From a virus (lineage: Duplodnaviria; Heunggongvirae; Uroviricota; Caudoviricetes), in IMG/VR virus record IMGVR_UViG_2671180577_000023: a stretch of DNA of 5,717 nt; one strand, 5' to 3'. Position 1 is the first letter of the stretch; each line of letters begins with the position of its first letter. The notes beneath the pieces were generated by a model that worked only from the letters and a program-made list of their open reading frames with translations, had not been told where the DNA came from and did not search any database. Made by a program: the position numbers and the translations under genes. Shown here in pieces: positions 1 to 5,717 of this stretch.

Positions 1-97
1 TTGTCGCCCATTGTGAGTCATATTCGCCCTGACTTTCCAGAACCATACGGACTGCCCGTTGACGGACTTCAGGGGAAAAACGAGTATTTTTAGTCAT
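1..97 (-). CDS. IS3-family transposase OrfA, N-terminal 32 codons only (continues beyond window start)
   Basis: ATG at 97-95 with AGGA Shine-Dalgarno about 6 nt upstream; translation [32 protein letters not shown] matches the helix-turn-helix N-terminus typical of IS3-family OrfA. Below the ORF-track length threshold because it is partial. Confidence 0.8.
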
Positions 98-151
98 CCT
101 GTTTACCTCTTTCTCAGGAAGTTTAGTCTCCAGGATTCCCGGGGCGGTTCA
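1..151 (-). mobile_element. Left-hand partial IS3-family insertion sequence (IS629/IS1203-like): terminal inverted repeat tip at 151, element body continues left of the window
   Basis: Minus strand from 151 reads TGAACCGCCCCGGGAATCCTGGAGACTAAACTTCC, then AGGA RBS and an ATG at 97-95 opening an ORF that translates [32 protein letters not shown], a recalled IS3-family OrfA N-terminus. The same 14-nt tip TGAACCGCCCCGGG recurs at 5613 on the plus strand. Confidence 0.8.
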
Positions 152-266
152 GTGGGAGCGAGTCTGCGCCGCGCTGCGGGAGCTGAACAAGCACCGGGAT
201 ATTGTTCGACAGATTGTCGATTCATCCGGTCGTATTGTGTCGGAAAAGTGATTGCCGGAGGCGCTT

Positions 267-662
267 ATGGCGAAACCTTTTACACACGAACAGCGGGAAG
301 AACTGAAGGCACGAATTATCGGATTGGTACGCAAAAATGAACGCATGACGATATCGCAACTGGAGAGAGCGACGGGAGCAGGCTGGCATTCAGTCAGACG
401 TTGCCTTGTGGATGTACTGGCTTGTGGCGATTTATACATGTCCGGTAAATACGGTGTTTTTGCATCAGAACAGGTGTATCGCGTATGGCGTAAGACACCG
501 GAGAAAACAACTGACCAGACATTGATTCGAAAGTTACCAGACGGAGAAATTCGCCGCTACGATAGACGCCTGAACATAATCTGTCGCGAGTGCCGGAATA
601 GTGAAGTTATGCAGCGCGTGCTGGCTTTCTATCAGGGGAATTTTCAGGAGGCGGTACTGTGA
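267..662 (+). CDS. Hypothetical prophage protein, possible winged-helix DNA-binding protein (131 aa)
   Basis: ORF-track frame 252..662; the ATG at 267 is preferred because GGAGG sits 5 nt upstream. Stop TGA overlaps the GTG at 659 of the next ORF. Segment MTISQLERATGAGWHSVRRCL looks HTH-like. No family recognised. Confidence 0.6.
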   Translation: MAKPFTHEQREELKARIIGLVRKNERMTISQLERATGAGWHSVRRCLVDVLACGDLYMSGKYGVFASEQVYRVWRKTPEKTTDQTLIRKLPDGEIRRYDRRLNIICRECRNSEVMQRVLAFYQGNFQEAVL

Positions 663-718
663 GTAAATTAGCTATCAGGCTTCAATTGTCGCTGGCATTC
701 GCATCAAAGGAGAATGAG

Positions 719-1303
719 ATGACCACTTTTACAAAAGAGCAGTTAATCAGTCATGTTAGTGAAAATGTAAAGGCGATGAAATTTGCAGTAAAACAGACAG
801 CATTCAAAAATTCTCTCGAGGCAATTGAGTTGGATTTAGCACTGGCCCTTGTTGCTCAGGCTTCGCTGGAAGCAGAGCCCGTGCTTTATATGAATCGATT
901 TACCGGAAAGACATTCTCACTGGAAGAGCAACCCGGTGCTGATAAGGAACCGGAAATATACGTGCCGCTATATGCTGCCCCGCCAGACAGCGCCGCCATG
1001 CTTCAGGCTGGAAACTTTCGGGAAAAGAAGGGTTCGTCAACCAATAATTTTCGGGAAATCTCGGAAACGTCAACCAACCATCCGGTAACTCTGGATGGTT
1101 GGATAAGCTGTAGTGAGCGAATGCCGGATGACGGTCAGCACGTAATTATTTTATGTGATGGCGCATTCGTTCTTTATGCGCAATATCGAGACGGTGAGTT
1201 TTTTGATGTAGTCCGTGATGGTGATGAATTTTTCGAAACACAGAGCCGCAATGTAACCGACTGGATGCCGCTACCAGAACCGCCGCAGGAGGTGCGCCAA
1301 TGA
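719..1303 (+). CDS. Phage protein with C-terminal DUF551-like domain (194 aa from ATG 719; alternative GTG start at 659 gives 214 aa)
   Basis: ORF-track 659..1303. ATG at 719 is preceded by AAGGAG with 6-nt spacing. C-terminus WISCSERMPDDGQHVIILCDG...VTDWMPLPEPP follows the recalled DUF551 pattern common in lambdoid prophages. Confidence 0.7.
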   Translation: MTTFTKEQLISHVSENVKAMKFAVKQTAFKNSLEAIELDLALALVAQASLEAEPVLYMNRFTGKTFSLEEQPGADKEPEIYVPLYAAPPDSAAMLQAGNFREKKGSSTNNFREISETSTNHPVTLDGWISCSERMPDDGQHVIILCDGAFVLYAQYRDGEFFDVVRDGDEFFETQSRNVTDWMPLPEPPQEVRQ

Positions 1304-1383
1304 ACTGGCCTGAAGCATTTGCAATTACAGGCGTTGCTATGGCTATCACCTTTTTAGTATATGTTATTTGTCGGTGGGGGTAA
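1300..1383 (+). CDS. Small hydrophobic peptide, 27 aa (MNWPEAFAITGVAMAITFLVYVICRWG), predicted single transmembrane helix
   Basis: ATG at 1300 overlaps the TGA stop of the DUF551 gene (ATGA); AGGAGG lies 7 nt upstream. Not in the ORF track because it is under the size cutoff. Confidence 0.4.
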   Translation: MNWPEAFAITGVAMAITFLVYVICRWG

Positions 1384-1418
1384 AAACGTTCGCCGGGATT
1401 AACACCAAAGGAGGGAAT

Positions 1419-1523
1419 ATGTCGGATGATATATCACTGGCAATGGAAGGTGCGCTGGCTGTTATTGCTGTTGTGGGCGTTTACTGCCTGGTTGTGTTTT
1501 TGATGGATCGACTAGGGAACTGA
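1419..1523 (+). CDS. Small hydrophobic peptide, 34 aa (MSDDISLAMEGALAVIAVVGVYCLVVFLMDRLGN), predicted single transmembrane helix
   Basis: ATG at 1419 preceded by AAGGAGGG (1408-1415). Hydrophobic core flanked by charged residues. Not in the ORF track because it is under the size cutoff. Confidence 0.45.
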   Translation: MSDDISLAMEGALAVIAVVGVYCLVVFLMDRLGN

Positions 1524-1565
1524 ATTCATTACGATATGGGAATTCCCATATCGGGTAAAAACGGT

Positions 1566-1593
1566 TTGCGGTAAAGCGAGAGTTAAGTAGAAT
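1566..1593 (+). promoter_or_regulatory. Putative sigma70 promoter for the hok-like toxin mRNA (TTGCGG, 16 nt, TAGAAT)
   Basis: Hexamers read directly; position is consistent with a ~400-nt hok-type mRNA ending at the terminator near 2014. Confidence 0.3.
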
Positions 1594-1768
1594 TGCTGCG
1601 GGTGCTTGAGGCTGTCTGCCTCGGGCATGCCACCGTAAGGCAGACAGAGAAAAGCCCCAGTTAACATTACGCGTCCTGCAAGACGCCTAACATTAATCTG
1701 AGGCCAATTTCATGCTAGACACATGTAGGTTAGCCTCTTACGCGCCGAAAGGCAAGGAGAAGCAGGCT

Positions 1769-1924
1769 ATGAAGCAGCAAAAGGCGATGTTAGTCGCCCT
1801 GATCGTCATCTGTATTACCGTCGTAGTGACGGCACTGGTAACGAGGAAAGACCTCTGCGAGGTACGAATCCGAACCGGTCAGACGGAGGTTGCTGTCTTC
1901 ACAGCTTACGAACCTGAGGAGTAA
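1769..1924 (+). CDS. Hok/Gef-family type I toxin (51 aa, small membrane-active peptide)
   Basis: MKQQKAMLVALIVICITVVVTALVTRKDLCEVRIRTGQTEVAVFTAYEPEE has the Hok signature: N-terminal transmembrane helix then TRK.LCE.R...G..EVAAF.AYE. AAGGAG sits 9 nt upstream of the ATG. The ORF track extends the same frame to an ATG at 1712 (mok-like leader frame). Confidence 0.85.
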   Translation: MKQQKAMLVALIVICITVVVTALVTRKDLCEVRIRTGQTEVAVFTAYEPEE

Positions 1925-1992
1925 GAGACCAGGCGAGGGAGAAATCCCTCGCCACCTCTGATGTGTCAGGCATCCTCAACGCACCCGCACTT

Positions 1993-2014
1993 AACCCGCT
2001 TCGGCGGGTTTTTT
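1993..2014 (+). terminator. Rho-independent terminator ending the hok-like mRNA
   Basis: CCCGC-TTCG-GCGGG hairpin followed by TTTTTT. It is preceded at 1932-1953 by a 9-bp stem with GAAA loop (GGCGAGGGA gaaa TCCCTCGCC). Confidence 0.7.
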
Positions 2015-2133
2015 CACTTACTGTGGTTGTGAATACGATTGGTATTAGGCTATGCTAACAACATTAGCCTGACTAATTTTGTATTGACTTGATTTTTGTT
2101 AAAGAACAGGACGGAGAAGTAAGGGTACACCCA

Positions 2134-2313
2134 ATGAGCTACGCACTAAAAAAACACCCGCGATTGACTATTCCCCCTCGCGATAAAAGCGTTGTGGCAG
2201 CTCCGCGCCCGGCTATCGATGAAAATTGCACTCATCGTGAGCAGGTGAAAAATGCTTTCGATTTCGGTTTTTCTCGTTACGAGAAGGCAATGGAAGAACT
2301 TTCAAAAGTGTAA
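2134..2313 (+). CDS. Small protein (60 aa) directly upstream of the Doc-family gene; candidate antitoxin, not Phd-like
   Basis: ATG at 2134 with AAGGG 8 nt upstream; stop at 2311-2313 lies 18 nt before the Doc-like start. ORF-track frame 2089..2313 begins at a TTG. Sequence MSYALKKHPRLTIPPRDKSVVAAPRPAIDENCTHREQVKNAFDFGFSRYEKAMEELSKV shows no resemblance to Phd/YefM. Confidence 0.5.
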   Translation: MSYALKKHPRLTIPPRDKSVVAAPRPAIDENCTHREQVKNAFDFGFSRYEKAMEELSKV

Positions 2314-2331
2314 TGATGGGTATTGTGCTCT

Positions 2332-2817
2332 ATGGCTGAGATTGTTGAAGGAGTGCACTACCTTTCGTTTGATGATCTTACCGAAATTAATCGCCTTTTA
2401 ATTGAGCTTCAAACACCAGATGAACCTGTTAGTGTGCTGAGTGTTGATAATTTAAGTTCTTCTCAGTCTCGTCCCAGCATGGTTCGATGGTATGAACAGA
2501 CTAATGACATGTTTGTACTGGCATCAGTATTGATTGAAAGTCTGATTCAGAATCATCCATTTGCTAATGCAAACAAACGAACAGCTATGATGGCTGGTTA
2601 TGTCTTCTTGTTGTTGAATGGCTATGAGTTAACAGCACCAGGCGATGAAATCGTGGAAATGGCAGAGGGACTGGCCTGCAAAACCTATACTCGAGAAGAT
2701 CTCGAGAACTGGTTGTGTTATTGGTCTCGTGCGTATGACAGCCGGGAATTATGTAAAACAGGCGCAACTATTGTTTTGTATGAAACTATCAAGCTTAAAA
2801 TAGAACAGCAAAACTAA
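2332..2817 (+). CDS. Doc (death-on-curing) / Fic-fold family toxin, 161 aa
   Basis: Contains HPFANANKRTA, which fits the Doc motif H-x-F-x-(D/N)-(A/G)-N-K-R exactly. ORF-track frame 2323..2817 starts at TTG; the first ATG is at 2332. Confidence 0.8.
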   Translation: MAEIVEGVHYLSFDDLTEINRLLIELQTPDEPVSVLSVDNLSSSQSRPSMVRWYEQTNDMFVLASVLIESLIQNHPFANANKRTAMMAGYVFLLLNGYELTAPGDEIVEMAEGLACKTYTREDLENWLCYWSRAYDSRELCKTGATIVLYETIKLKIEQQN

Positions 2818-2833
2818 AGGTGCTTCTAATGAA

Positions 2834-2858
2834 AACCCGCTTCGGCGGGTTTTGTTGT
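2834..2858. terminator. Bidirectional intrinsic terminator between the convergent Doc-like and HigA-like genes
   Basis: CCCGC-TTCG-GCGGG hairpin (2836-2849) with TTTTGTTGT on the plus side and a T-run on the minus side. The hairpin and flanks (AACCCGCTTCGGCGGGTTTT) are identical to the hok terminator at 1993-2012. Confidence 0.6.
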
Positions 2859-2867
2859 ATTGGAGTA

Positions 2868-3185
2868 TCATGATATTACCTGGATCCCGTTTTTCTCTAC
2901 GACTGAAAGAAGGCGAAGAGCGGCACCTCCCGGCCGTTTTACACCACGTTCCCAGTCTGATATCAGGTTTTTACTGACGTTGAGGTATCTGGCAAAAACA
3001 GGTTGAGACAGATGCTCTCGTTCGCGCAGTGCACGGATCCTTTCCGGAGACATTACCGGCGCTGGCTGGAGACAAGTTTCATCGAATTCTCGCATAGTCT
3101 GTTTCGTTACTGCGCCGATATCATGAAGCGATTCCATCATTTCATGTACGGATGCAAGCGCATCACTGCGGTAATTTTTACTCAT
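2868..3185 (-). CDS. HigA-like antitoxin, XRE-type helix-turn-helix (COG2944-like), 105 aa
   Basis: ORF-track 2868..3185. C-terminal SPERIRALREREHLSQPVFARYLNVSKNLISDWERGVKRPGGAALRLL matches the recalled HTH antitoxin family partnered with RelE/ParE-like toxins. Its ATG (3185-3183) overlaps the stop of the upstream toxin frame (ATGAGTAA), the toxin-first order typical of HigBA. Confidence 0.8.
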   Translation of the reverse strand: MSKNYRSDALASVHEMMESLHDIGAVTKQTMREFDETCLQPAPVMSPERIRALREREHLSQPVFARYLNVSKNLISDWERGVKRPGGAALRLLSVVEKNGIQVIS

Positions 3186-3548
3186 TGGGTACCTCCGTAA
3201 ACTGACCCTGTAGAATCAGTTGTGCCAGTTGTTCATCTGTTAGATTGAGTACGTGAGGAGCCGCCTTCCGAAATGCACTTTCCGCAGTAGCGGTTATATT
3301 TTCACGTTCATTTTTTGCGTATGCATATACGAAAAAGGCCCTTGTGCCGACGCGATAGAAAATGATTGTGCGATAACCGCCAGATTTGCCGCCACCGACT
3401 CGTGGCAGACGTTGCTTGATAACGCCGTTACCCAGGTTTGCTGAGATAAGCCCGTTATCAGCCTGTTTAACAATTTCGCGCAGTGATTGGTCGGATATTT
3501 TGTTTTGCGTGCAAATCGCTCAAACCAGGCGTTTTTAAAAATGCGCAT
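3178..3548 (-). pseudogene. RelE/ParE-superfamily (HigB-like) toxin gene, disrupted by a frameshift after codon ~16
   Basis: From ATG 3548-3546 the frame reads MRIFKNAWFERFARK, the conserved N-terminus of this family, then runs into unrelated sequence (ORF-track 3294..3611). The rest of the toxin (KISDQSLREIVKQADNGLISANLGNGVIKQRLPRVGGGKSGGYRTIIFYRVGTRAFFVYAYAKNERENITATAESAFRKAAPHVLNLTDEQLAQLILQGQFTEVPNE) is intact in another frame with no start codon of its own. The break lies in the A-rich tract AAAACAAAATAT (about 3495-3506). Confidence 0.7.
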
Positions 3549-3570
3549 TTTTTGTTCCGTTATTAATGTA

Positions 3571-3585
3571 TAACACATAGTGTTA
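3571..3585. promoter_or_regulatory. Perfect inverted repeat TAACAC-ata-GTGTTA upstream of the higB-like start; candidate operator for the HigA-like repressor
   Basis: 6-bp arms with 3-bp spacer read directly; sits about 25 bp upstream of the toxin ATG in its promoter region. Confidence 0.35.
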
Positions 3586-3615
3586 CATTGCGTAGGGATC
3601 TGCAATGCCATCAGT

Positions 3616-3645
3616 TTGACAACGTCGCGTGTTCGGGGCTATATT
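3616..3645 (+). promoter_or_regulatory. Near-consensus sigma70 promoter (TTGACA, 18 nt, TATATT) driving the leader, c4-like RNA and ORF6N operon
   Basis: Hexamers read directly; the same architecture (TTGACG, 18 nt, TATATT) recurs at 5201-5230 upstream of the paralogous module. Confidence 0.6.
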
Positions 3646-3705
3646 CCTCACGCGCCAGCAAAACCTGGCGTCGGGATTAGCACCCCGGATATCGAAACGG
3701 TGCAT

Positions 3706-3726
3706 AACCGCGCTGGCGGTTTTTTT
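3706..3726 (+). terminator. Terminator-like hairpin plus T7 run in the leader, between target sites and the c4-like RNA (possible attenuator)
   Basis: AACCGC-GCTG-GCGGTT followed by TTTTTTT. The upstream CGCCAG (3653-3658) can pair with either CTGGCG copy (3665-3670 or 3713-3718), giving alternative folds. Confidence 0.45.
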
Positions 3727-3758
3727 ATGCGCTAAGCACAGTCACATTCGCGATTTAT

Positions 3759-3835
3759 GGCGGGCTGTGTGGGGGAGCCGAAAGGCTCGCCGGATGTTTC
3801 GACCGGTAGTGCTAACCCCGCACAGTTCGCCACCA
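3759..3835 (+). ncRNA. Candidate c4-like antisense regulatory RNA (~77 nt) upstream of the ORF6N gene
   Basis: A 16-bp closing helix (3759-3774 with 3816-3831) encloses a GNRA hairpin (GAGCC-GAAA-GGCTC) and two loops. Loop GTTTCGA (3796-3802) is complementary to TCGAAAC at 3692-3698 and 3873-3879; loop GTGCTAA (3809-3815) is complementary to TTAGCAC at 3677-3683 and 3842-3848. A 3-prime ACCA tail follows. The second target pair lies just upstream of the ORF6N RBS. Confidence 0.5.
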
Positions 3836-3890
3836 CGATGATTAGCACCTGACGGTGGCGAGGTAAAAATTATCGAAACGCGAGGTCATT

Positions 3891-4556
3891 ATGGCTGTTC
3901 AAATTTCTGTCGAAAACCTTTCCCCTGTTACCTATAACCAGATCCCCGTAATTACTACTGAACTGTTGGCTCACCTTTACGGAACAAAAATCAAAAACAT
4001 TTCTGATAACTTTCTGAACAACACGACGCGATTCATGCCCGGAAAGCATTACTTTAAAATTGAAAAAAACGAATTACGCGAGTTTAAGAACAGACCCGAA
4101 ACAATCGGGTTAGTTGGTAAAAATGCCCGCTCCCTCATCCTCTGGACAGAACGCGGCGCAGCCCGTCACGCAAAAATGCTCGAAACCGATCGGGCGTGGG
4201 AGGTATTCGAAAAACTGGAAGACTGCTATTTCAGCCAGGGAAAAACAGCACCAACCGAACAGCAGCCGCAGATTCAGCCACAATTCACAGCCGAAGAAAT
4301 CATCCTCCTTTGCTACATGCAGCTCTGGATGGAAAAAGCCCAGGACATCAGCAAACACCTGTATCCCATTATGAAAGAGCTGAACTCCTCATACACGAAC
4401 AAGCTGTATGACATTGCGTTTGAGACCATCTACATGGTGACGAAGAACAGAGACGCGCTACTGAGGGAGGTAACACGTCTCGACATGTCAAGTTCCGTTA
4501 TCCAGCGGGCCATGCCAATGCTGAAAAGCCTGCGGGCAAGACAATTTGAATTCTGA
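3891..4556 (+). CDS. Antirepressor-like protein with N-terminal ORF6N/KilA-N-type domain, 221 aa
   Basis: ORF-track 3891..4556; GAGG lies 5 nt upstream of the ATG. N-terminus MAVQISVENLSPVTYNQIPVITTELLAHLYGT...FMPGKHYFKIEKNELREF matches the recalled ORF6N pattern of phage antirepressors. Confidence 0.75.
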   Translation: MAVQISVENLSPVTYNQIPVITTELLAHLYGTKIKNISDNFLNNTTRFMPGKHYFKIEKNELREFKNRPETIGLVGKNARSLILWTERGAARHAKMLETDRAWEVFEKLEDCYFSQGKTAPTEQQPQIQPQFTAEEIILLCYMQLWMEKAQDISKHLYPIMKELNSSYTNKLYDIAFETIYMVTKNRDALLREVTRLDMSSSVIQRAMPMLKSLRARQFEF

Positions 4557-4560
4557 AACT

Positions 4561-4583
4561 AAAGGAGCTTCGGCTCCTTTTTT
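4561..4583 (+). terminator. Rho-independent terminator after the ORF6N gene
   Basis: GGAGC-TTCG-GCTCC hairpin followed by TTTTTT. Coordinates are approximate to within a base. Confidence 0.7.
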
Positions 4584-4610
4584 GTTGGGAAAATCCAGTG
4601 AGAGGGAATA

Positions 4611-5021
4611 ATGAACCAGACTATCTTCCTCCGAAGTAAGCAGCAGCAACAATTCGCCATTAACGCCATCCTTGCAACAACTCTCGATAAAGACAAACCC
4701 GTTACGATCCGCATCACCGATTACAAGCGGAATCTCGATCAAAATGCCAAATTTCACGCGATGGTCGCTGATATCTCCCGACAGGTTCAGTGGTGCGGCA
4801 GATGGCTAAAACCAGAACAGTGGAAAGTTTTGTTAATCAGCGGTCATGCCGTGGCGACAAAACAGGAAGCTGATGTTTTGCCTGGTCTTGAAGGTGAATA
4901 CGTCAATATCCGCGAAAGCAGTGCGCAGATGAGCGTGAAGCGTATGGCAAGCCTGATTGAGTACACAACTTCCTGGGCTGTGGAGCAGGGTGTCAGATTT
5001 ACCGACAGGAGGTATGAATGA
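4611..5021 (+). CDS. ninB: NinB-family protein (lambda NinB-like single-strand DNA-binding recombination protein), 136 aa
   Basis: ORF-track 4611..5021. Segment [33 protein letters not shown] aligns with the recalled lambda NinB core RSLDQNRKLWACLGDVSRQVEWHGRWLDAESWK. GAGGG RBS upstream. Confidence 0.8.
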
Positions 5022-5200
5022 GACGACAGCGACGAAGCATTACCGATATAGTCTGTGAAAACTGCAATTACCTTCCAACGAAACGTTCCAGAAATAAACC
5101 CAGGCCAATCCCAAAAGAATCTGACGTTAAAGCCTTCAATTACACGGCTCACCTGTGGGATATCCGGTGGCTAAGACATCGTGCGAGGAAAACAAGGTGA
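5018..5200 (+). CDS. ninE: NinE-family protein, 60 aa
   Basis: ORF-track 5018..5200. Start overlaps the ninB stop (ATGA). [60 protein letters not shown] matches the recalled lambda NinE sequence closely. Confidence 0.75.
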
Positions 5201-5230
5201 TTGACGTGATGATTTATTCGGGGCTATATT
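5201..5230 (+). promoter_or_regulatory. Sigma70 promoter (TTGACG, 18 nt, TATATT) of the second leader / c4-like / ORF6N module
   Basis: Same spacing and -10 as the promoter at 3616-3645. The downstream 40 nt (TTCCTCACGCGCCAGCAAAAYCTGGCGTCGGGATT) are nearly identical between modules. Confidence 0.55.
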
Positions 5231-5291
5231 CCTCACGCGCCAGCAAAATCTGGCGTCGGGATTGGCGTCCTGGATAGAGACCGCGACAGAT

Positions 5292-5314
5292 ACACGCCGC
5301 GAGCGTGTTTTTTA
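5292..5314 (+). terminator. Terminator-like hairpin plus T-run in the second leader (counterpart of 3706-3726)
   Basis: ACACGC-CGCGA-GCGTGT followed by TTTTTT. Sequence differs from module A but structure and position are conserved. Confidence 0.5.
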
Positions 5315-5344
5315 TTGTCGTATGCACGCGCACATCTGAATTAT

Positions 5345-5420
5345 GGTGGGCTGTGTGGGGGCGGAGAGATCCGCGCCGGTCGGTTTCCCGGTTACGCCAA
5401 CCCTGCACAGTTCACCACCA
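5345..5420 (+). ncRNA. Second candidate c4-like antisense RNA (~76 nt), diverged paralogue of 3759-3835
   Basis: Same architecture: 16-bp closing helix (5345-5360 with 5401-5416), GNRA hairpin GCGGA-GAGA-TCCGC, two recognition loops, ACCA tail. Loop ACGCCAA (5394-5400) is complementary to TTGGCGT at 5262-5268 and 5426-5432; loop GGTTTC is complementary to GAAACC near the RBS (5453-5458). Confidence 0.5.
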
Positions 5421-5474
5421 GACGATTGGCGTCGTCGGTGGTGAGTTATTAAGAAACCACTCGAGGGCGTCATT

Positions 5475-5615
5475 ATGACAACTCAAATCTCTGTTGAAAC
5501 ACTCTCCACGATTACTTACAAGCAGATCCCCGTTATCACTACCGAACTTTTGGCGCACCTTTACGGCACAGAAGCTATTCGTATTCGCCAGAATCACCAC
5601 GAAAACAAAGGTTGA
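5475..5615 (+). pseudogene. Second ORF6N antirepressor-like gene, truncated after codon 46 by the IS insertion
   Basis: GAGGG RBS then ATG at 5475; MTTQISVETLSTITYKQIPVITTELLAHLYGTEAIRIRQNHHENKG parallels the first 46 residues of the 3891..4556 protein. The frame stops at TGA 5613-5615, which is the first three bases of the IS terminal repeat. Confidence 0.75.
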
Positions 5616-5717
5616 ACCGCCCCGGGTTTCCTGGAGAGTGTTTTATCTGTGAACTCAGGCTGCCAGATCATCGTTTCCGATGGAAGCATAATAAGCTTTT
5701 TCTGCTTCTGCCGGAGG
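5613..5717 (-). mobile_element. Right-hand partial IS3-family insertion sequence (IS629/IS1203-like): terminal repeat at 5613, body continues past the window end
   Basis: Plus strand from 5613 reads TGAACCGCCCCGGGTTTCCTGGAGAGTG, sharing its first 14 nt with the repeat at 151 and diverging after, as expected for the opposite end of the same IS. Same orientation as the left copy. Confidence 0.8.
5655..5717 (-). CDS. IS3-family transposase OrfB, C-terminal 20 codons only (continues beyond window end)
   Basis: Minus-strand frame reads PPAEAEKAYYASIGNDDLAA then TGA (plus 5655-5657), ending about 40 nt inside the terminal repeat, the usual layout for an IS3-family OrfB. Confidence 0.55.
   Translation of the reverse strand, partial: PPAEAEKAYYASIGNDDLAA

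Follow-up and report, generated by a model that had tools for sequence, protein, structure and literature searches.

The DNA analysed here, a stretch of 5,717 nucleotides (nt) from the tailed-phage record IMGVR_UViG_2671180577_000023 (Caudoviricetes) that is called the window below, carries on its minus strand a type II toxin–antitoxin (TA) module, in which a toxin gene of the PF06296 family precedes the gene of a HigA2-like antitoxin. The module belongs to a fragment of an E. coli-type lambdoid prophage, where it occupies the moron region that separates the replication genes from the nin genes. One A has been lost from a run of five near the 5′ end of the toxin gene, which is very probably an inherited pseudogene of the RelE/HigB2 type that stands beside an intact antitoxin gene, an unremarkable state for TA modules to pass through as they decay.

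The frameshift and the ancestral allele

Read from its ATG (3548–3546, minus strand), the toxin gene begins with 15 native codons, MRIFKNAWFERFARK, after which the same frame runs through 69 unrelated codons (TKYPTNH...) to a TAA at 3296–3294, with a product of 84 amino acids (aa). The rest of the toxin is encoded in the −1 frame, which reads ...KISDQSLREIV..., KISDQSLREIVKQADNG...GGGKSGGYRTIIFYRVGTRAFFVYAYAKNERENI...FTEVPNE and ends in a TAA at 3180–3178; its position at +2/−1 relative to the ATG fits the loss of 1 nt. Once the two frames are rejoined, the resulting protein of 123 aa matches PF06296 in a Pfam search over the whole profile (positions 1–120 of 120; E 2.2e-45), far beyond what would be expected by chance. 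A first interpretation made from the letters of the window (the sequence-only reading) had placed the N-terminus and the body of the toxin in different frames, and both the frame reading and the PF06296 match bear this out. Members of the family have one continuous open reading frame (ORF) of ~123–129 aa with a KNAWFERF block, and in the window the block and the body lie in different frames. Lacking a continuous ORF, the gene is therefore best classified as a pseudogene of PF06296 and not as a functional member.

Intact alleles of 123 aa with 96–99% DNA identity are present in the complete Escherichia coli genomes HCP4S3_I4, SCU-104, 2013C-3033 and JNEC-KY203. In the alignment, these alleles read CGCAAAAACAAAATA (CGC-AAAAA-C-AAAA-TA, coding R-K-N-K-I), and the window reads CGCAAAACAAAATA (CGC-AAAA-C-AAAA-TA). 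Because the intact alleles have five A (A5) where the window has four (A4), one A was lost from the A5 run after codon 15, which is now the A4 run at 3506–3503; the alignment also rules out an insertion of two nucleotides in place of the deletion. The loss of 1 nt from a homopolymer and the tract in which it occurred had been recognised from the sequence, and the alignment to intact homologues, proposed at that time as a check, gives A5 as the ancestral length. The run affected is, however, the first one and not the second (AAAAT), so that the break follows codon 15 and not codon ~16. Apart from the deletion, the window toxin carries the change E89A (window 3284), present in none of the sequenced intact alleles.

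Distribution of the A4 allele

A4 is an inherited allele with a wide distribution. Positions 151–5612 of the window are 100% identical to E. coli ML35, and eight complete genomes (ML35, FORC_029, FORC_043, FORC_069, NCCP15648, NCCP 13905, NCCP 13983 and TOE17) match its toxin region at 100% identity. A4 is accompanied by other single-nucleotide polymorphisms in PS2Canimalfeces12 (PS2C) and LZHX12, and by the further loss of a single nucleotide, the C at window 3263, in 17 O104:H4-type genomes, cM8a and AST198, while in NMBU-W12E19, another genome of the A4 group, the 5′ half of the toxin gene has been removed by an IS66 element. A4 is also found in the genome of phage PhiR12_3 (from ECOR13), the sole related record in the phage collection. 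Contigs were scanned with a pattern that allowed either A-run length, which gave seven A4 and seven A5 contigs in IMG/VR and again seven of each in metagenomes (A4 in 14 of 28); intact close alleles are carried by 12 of these 28 viral or metagenome contigs. Among public contigs, the exact 84-aa frameshift product is encoded on 188 and its O104-type variant on 210, compared with 272 and 654 for the two commonest intact proteins.

The close-allele group comprises 38 complete genomes, with an intact toxin in 6 and a broken one in 32; the sequence itself was inspected in 13 of these genomes, match length and identity served to classify the others, and the broken count is inflated by the clonal O104:H4 isolates. 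Position 3487 is G in all sequenced intact alleles and A only on A4 backgrounds, a restriction that would fit a single ancestral event, followed by spread through phage transfer and recombination.

Decay of the toxin gene

Between intact alleles, the ratio of non-synonymous to synonymous substitution rates (dN/dS) is 0.04–0.17 for both genes, which corresponds to strong purifying selection. In the toxin of the A4 clade, six non-synonymous events could be placed (3515 F>L, 3512 A>T, 3472 I>M, 3420 I>L, 3284 E>A and 3263 A>V), together with two synonymous ones (3531 and 3487) and the deletion at 3263. This ratio is the one expected without constraint and differs from that of close intact pairs (Fisher p 0.03, on small numbers), which points to relaxed constraint on the toxin in the A4 clade.

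Other alleles have been broken in other ways. Deletion of an A at 3281 is combined, on an A5 background, with deletion of the C at 3263 in 23CRST047 and L040. In L036, the latter deletion occurs together with a 6-nt deletion. An additional G in a G-run splits the 79%-identical O157-type allele in two (FORC_041 type) in about a quarter of a spread sample. The sequence-only reading had taken the frameshift to be so recent that no further substitution had degraded the toxin frame. The body frame is indeed still open, but in view of E89A, the occurrence of A4 in many E. coli lineages and in a phage, and the second lesions of sister lineages, this holds only in part.

A separate observation concerns an E. 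coli protein of 122 aa (P0009), which reads ...EKA-FSSMRTQRMRENIT... where the conserved AFFIYAYAKNERENIT block stands. Judged by its sequence, it looks like another inactive toxin variant, with two nearby compensating frameshifts in the catalytic core.

The antitoxin

The antitoxin gene had been described as intact and as overlapping the toxin stop by 8 nt, and this is the case: its ATG lies at 3185–3183 and the overlap is ATGAGTAA (3185–3178). All 12 copies of this allele that were sequenced (that of the window plus 11 more) encode the same protein, WP_000042397.1, irrespective of toxin state. Among A4 haplotypes, one site varies in the antitoxin and eight in the toxin (p 0.04), the antitoxin differences within this allele being one synonymous and no non-synonymous change. 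Its helix-turn-helix (HTH) domain is matched by PF01381 (HTH_3; E 1e-7, residues 50–94) and by V. cholerae HigA-2 (E 8e-8, residues 45–99). The N-terminal extension of 44 residues is nearly invariant across alleles; it has no detectable similarity to residues 1–36 of V. cholerae HigA2, and the alignment of the two proteins begins at residue 45. In V. cholerae HigA2, the N-terminal half is the toxin-neutralising part (PMC5416850).

The premature TAA of the toxin gene precedes the antitoxin ATG by 108 nt, and translational coupling between the genes is thus broken. The antitoxin gene nevertheless has a GGAGG of its own and an unbroken ORF, and its protein is most probably still produced. By analogy with V. 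cholerae HigA2, this protein would most probably bind the palindrome upstream of the toxin gene with its C-terminal HTH and thereby repress the operon promoter. The closest well-populated relative is the O157-type allele, which is found in 179 complete genomes with a mostly intact toxin. The antitoxin of this allele is 99% identical to that of the window at the protein level (one V/I difference) and its toxin is 86% identical, values that make it plausible that the window antitoxin would cross-neutralise the O157-type toxin.

The antitoxin has not been spared everywhere. In CP026839.1 (L020, 3964–5487), which has the A4 background, an insertion sequence (IS), which we take to be IS2-like, interrupts the antitoxin gene behind nt 204, and its end reads TAGACTGGCCCC / TAGACTGGCCCCCTGAATCTCCAG; this is the next step in the decay of the module. 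In PhiR12_3, the antitoxin differs by two further amino-acid changes. L042, an A4 contig of ERZ1035048 with a coverage of 2.3x, has one additional A in an A homopolymer of the antitoxin gene (window-equivalent 2973), which at this depth may be an assembly error and not a real frameshift. Toxin state also varies with the antitoxin allele: toxins next to the “...GIQVIS” antitoxin are almost all broken, with HCP4S3_I4 and L031 as the only intact cases, and those next to the “...GIQAINV” antitoxin are almost all intact, with PhiR12_3 as the exception.

Alternative explanations

Three alternatives would leave the host with an active toxin. A missing A could be an error of sequencing or assembly that hides an intact gene, as homopolymer indels are a common type of error and only one sequence underlies the window; the sequence-only reading had named this as its main alternative. 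Its probability is now negligible, given that A4 is shared by dozens of independent assemblies, among them those of at least 30 complete genomes that include the much re-sequenced O104:H4 outbreak strains, as well as by a phage genome, 14 viral or metagenome contigs and hundreds of draft contigs, and that it is linked to A at 3487, a marker never seen in sequenced A5 alleles. A real deletion could still be bypassed by programmed −1 ribosomal frameshifting or by transcriptional slippage, with a regulated, low-level toxin as the result. The shift required is indeed −1, and ACA-AAA-U permits perfect re-pairing of tRNA-Lys one base back, with the product MRIFKNAWFERFARKTKISDQ..., but recoding of this kind is very improbable. 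The junction contains only an A_AAA tetramer and no X_XXY_YYZ slippery heptamer, shuffled sequences fold as well as the 78 nt that follow downstream (z +0.67), and the flanks are identical in the intact A5 alleles. Efficient transcriptional slippage needs runs longer than 4 A, and the runs at the junction have just four. A conserved two-frame arrangement, which had been considered a sign of programmed frameshifting, is found neither in the intact alleles nor in distant homologues: nearly all of ~1900 homologues are 123–129 aa long and in a single frame, with K5, N6, A7, W8, F9, E10, R11, F12, R14 and K15 invariant. In addition, second frameshifts and non-synonymous changes build up in the A4 lineages. 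Translation of a shortened toxin from an internal start meets equally serious objections. The 113 codons of the body frame contain no ATG, GTG or TTG, and consequently no HigB2-like mRNA interferase is expected to be made from it. RefSeq nevertheless begins a protein of 112 aa at the ATT at 3516, and this protein, WP_226867305.1, is called as a normal coding sequence (CDS) by the Prokaryotic Genome Annotation Pipeline (PGAP) in ML35, FORC_069 and other genomes and is found on 110 contigs. ATT is a very poor initiator, the upstream TTTGAGCG offers no convincing Shine-Dalgarno sequence, and ribosomes coming from the strong upstream ATG cross the site in another frame. The codon is changed to ACT in O104:H4, AST198 and PhiR12_3, and the product would be without residues 1–11, including the invariant K5–R11, which removes strand beta1 and half of helix alpha1 of an AlphaFold2 (AF2) model of the toxin. 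That an active protein is made in this way is thus as hard to credit as recoding.

Gene decay accounts best for the locus. Ribosomes that start at the ATG at 3548 would read the 69 out-of-frame codons and stop at 3296–3294, and the antitoxin gene would lose its translational coupling while keeping its own GGAGG and ORF. A dead toxin with a live antitoxin would then be mainly an obligatory intermediate of TA decay, as losing the toxin first should carry no cost and losing the antitoxin first should be lethal. After this step, the antitoxin would be dispensable, as in the IS-disrupted gene on the A4 background. Some points weigh against the interpretation as a pseudogene. The substitution counts are small and their polarity is derived from a handful of recombining haplotypes, A4 and the deletion at 3263 are found on mixed backgrounds, and the window-type allele stands in RefSeq as an intact toxin of 112 aa instead of a pseudogene. 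In principle, a −1 slip of tRNA-Lys on A_AAA at ACAAAAU (3503–3497) could also give traces of a near-wild-type toxin (N16T). A different question is whether the orphan antitoxin is kept by selection, as anti-addiction or superinfection immunity against HigB2-like toxins of related lambdoid phages, the loss of the toxin being itself adaptive. This is unlikely, although it has more in its favour than the alternatives above. At least five independent lesions have struck the toxin (A4, delC3263, delA3281, IS66 and the +G of the O157-type allele) with the antitoxin intact in all, the toxin is broken in 32 of 38 close-allele complete genomes, and the N-terminal half of the antitoxin, the half that neutralises the toxin in V. 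cholerae HigA2 (PMC5416850), is almost invariant across all alleles. The near identity to the O157-type antitoxin adds to this, and homologous intact toxins circulate on other mobile elements, in the form of that allele (179 genomes) and on 12 of the 28 contigs. Orphan antitoxins have also been proposed to act as such modules (PMC7354431; PMC10790755). On the other hand, a dead toxin beside a live antitoxin is expected without selection, the reverse order of loss being lethal, and the clonal O104:H4 genomes inflate the counts. The antitoxin has been cut by an IS in one A4 genome and has changed twice in PhiR12_3, and megablast found no second toxin copy in the A4 genomes, in a search that did not extend to PF06296 paralogues below ~75% DNA identity. 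The stronger proposal of a recurrent adaptive loss of the toxin, with the antitoxin as a trans-acting immunity factor against HigB2-like toxins of 86% identity that rival lambdoid phages, Stx-converting ones among them, carry, is somewhat more doubtful still. If it held, the window would contain a phage-borne anti-addiction or anti-abortive-infection gene that spreads via pathogenic E. coli such as O104:H4.

Layout of the locus and its surroundings

The features of the module are listed in Table 1. The palindrome upstream of the toxin gene is kept in the 79%-identical O157-type allele (alignment) and is likely to mark the operator and promoter region. It was not reported by an ungapped inverted-repeat finder, being imperfect with a 1-nt bulge, and a sigma-70 scan gave no promoter on the toxin strand, its sole match being a divergent plus-strand promoter at 3616–3645. 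The hairpin at 2832–2853 is likely a bidirectional terminator.

Table 1. Features of the toxin–antitoxin locus in the window
Positions	Strand	Feature	Evidence
3567–3587	−	Imperfect palindrome TGTAACAC-TA-TGTGTTATACA, directly upstream of the toxin start	Sequence, allele alignment
3504–3548	−	Toxin start and 15 N-terminal codons MRIFKNAWFERFARK, with most of the invariant K5-N6-A7-W8-F9-E10-R11-F12 block	Sequence, homologue alignment
3514–3516	−	ATT codon, RefSeq/PGAP start of the 112-aa “toxin” WP_226867305.1	Annotation, sequence
3503–3506	−	A4 run, site of the 1-nt deletion; A5 in intact alleles (CGCAAAAACAAAATA)	Allele alignments
3178–3501	−	Toxin body KISDQSL...FTEVPNE and TAA, −1 frame, open, without ATG/GTG/TTG	Sequence, Pfam PF06296 match
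3294–3296	−	Premature TAA closing the 84-aa product, 108 nt 5′ of the antitoxin ATG	Sequence
3192–3196	−	GGAGG Shine-Dalgarno sequence, 6 nt 5′ of the antitoxin ATG	Sequence
2868–3185	−	Intact HigA2-like antitoxin/repressor, 105 aa, WP_000042397.1; N-terminal segment of ~44 aa and C-terminal Xre-type HTH	ORF, profile matches
2832–2853		GC-rich hairpin between A and T runs, separating the convergent antitoxin and Doc genes	Sequence

The HigB2-like pair is one of three TA modules within ~2 kb. A hok/sok type I module is located at 1600–1924, with a sok match in Rfam (116.9 bits, 1600–1774) and a HokD-like ORF at 1712–1924 (hokD in ML35). An intact toxin of the Doc/Fic family is encoded at 2323–2817 on the plus strand (TIGR01550, E 1.4e-35) and converges on the HigA2-like antitoxin at the shared hairpin terminator (2832–2853). 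The ORF of 59 aa upstream of Doc (2134–2313, plus strand) has no family match and is presumably its Phd-like antitoxin.

On the other side of the toxin gene, the promoter at 3616–3645 is consensus-like (TTGACA-18-TATATT), diverges from the toxin promoter and points into the first of two copies of a c4-a1b1 / isrK / C4 antisense RNA module (3639–3837 and 5224–5422, plus strand; RF03163, RF01394 and RF01695 above the gathering score in Rfam). Each copy lies upstream of an ORF6N/antirepressor gene (3891–4556 and 5475–...), and the whole resembles an immI-like arrangement of P1/P7 in duplicate.

Both ends of the window (1–151 and 5613–5717) are termini of an IS3-family element in the same orientation, with the inverted repeats TGAACCGCCCCGGGAATCCTGG and TGAACCGCCCCGGGTTTCCTGG. 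The left end contains the start of OrfA (minus strand, from 97), and the right end the C-terminus of OrfB (...PPAEAEKAYYASIGNDDLAA*). They flank a prophage piece of 5.46 kb and cut a DUF1627 gene on the left and an Ant/ORF6N gene on the right, 46 codons of which remain (5475–5612). This IS-bracketed arrangement is found in no complete E. coli genome of the collection, so that the DNA may come from a strain rich in IS elements, for example a Shigella.

Consequences for annotation

The main value of the finding concerns annotation, as a decay intermediate is labelled in RefSeq as an intact RelE/ParE toxin in ML35, the FORC and NCCP strains and others. None of the frameshifted alleles is flagged as a pseudogene by PGAP, which instead gives the name “RelE/ParE family toxin” to CDSs of reduced length (112, 85, 68 and 98 aa; WP_226867305.1, WP_309487867.1, WP_228355587.1 and WP_286338887.1). 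The CDS of 112 aa starts at ATT, and the one of 98 aa at an ATG made by the substitution 3472 T>G. Since such CDSs are called toxins, censuses of TA systems in E. coli, the O104:H4 outbreak lineage included, over-count the functional toxins at this locus. The alleles also form a natural series (intact, A4, A4 with a second deletion, IS-cut toxin and IS-cut antitoxin), which is suited to tests of whether orphan prophage antitoxins cross-protect against related incoming toxins.

Comparison with known systems

The literature search returned no paper about this particular E. coli prophage module. The finding is well explained by existing knowledge and is of an already known kind, a textbook intermediate of TA decay. 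PF06296 is described as the “HigB2/RelE” family, in which the toxin gene precedes the antitoxin gene and the toxin cleaves mRNA in a ribosome-dependent way (PMC11980606). A search of NCBIfam assigned neither the toxin nor the short peptides at the IS ends to a family.

Among solved structures, V. cholerae HigB2-HigA2 (PDB 5JA8, 5JAA and 8A0X; Hadzi et al. 2017, PMC5416850) is the best match both by sequence and by fold. It shares with the window the toxin family PF06296, the order of toxin before antitoxin, and an antitoxin in which an N-terminal extension is followed by a C-terminal Xre-type HTH (E 8e-8). The relationship is distant, with a toxin E of 5e-3 and ~22% identity. The AF2 model, built for an intact allele of 98% identity (predicted local distance difference test, pLDDT, 72; predicted template modelling score, pTM, 0.70), has HigB2 chains as its best PDB matches, and these matches to the RelE/BECR fold are weak (probability 0.94, template modelling score 0.44–0.49, E 0.03). 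V. cholerae HigB2-HigA2 is furthermore located in a superintegron, whereas the copy in the window belongs to a lambdoid prophage and its toxin gene is frameshifted.

The designation “HigB-like” of the sequence-only reading is adequate in a loose sense; more precisely, the toxin is of the HigB2/PF06296 type and belongs to a different Pfam family from the HigB of Proteus. The HigB-HigA pair of Proteus vulgaris Rts1 (PF05015 / PF09907 types) has the toxin-first order, and its toxin belongs to the same RelE/ParE superfamily of ribosome-dependent mRNases, but the Pfam family and the architecture of the antitoxin differ. The Proteus HigA has no disordered neutralising segment (PMC5416850).

Much closer are the intact E. 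coli prophage alleles, WP_077168034.1 in HCP4S3_I4 and WP_001217944.1 with the antitoxin WP_000042395.1 in O157:H7, which have the same locus, promoter palindrome and ATGAGTAA overlap. Their DNA identity to the window is 98.9% (HCP4S3_I4) and 79% (O157-type), with identical or 99% identical antitoxin proteins, and they differ from it in having A5 and a continuous toxin of 123 aa in place of A4 and E89A.

Orphan antitoxins and degraded type II loci, with a proposed anti-addiction role through cross-neutralisation of incoming homologous toxins, are documented in an E. coli survey (PMC10790755) and elsewhere (PMC7354431). As in the window, the antitoxin remains there after its cognate toxin has decayed. 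What sets the present case apart from other orphan antitoxins is that the toxin remnant is nearly full length, which makes the origin of the orphan unambiguous.

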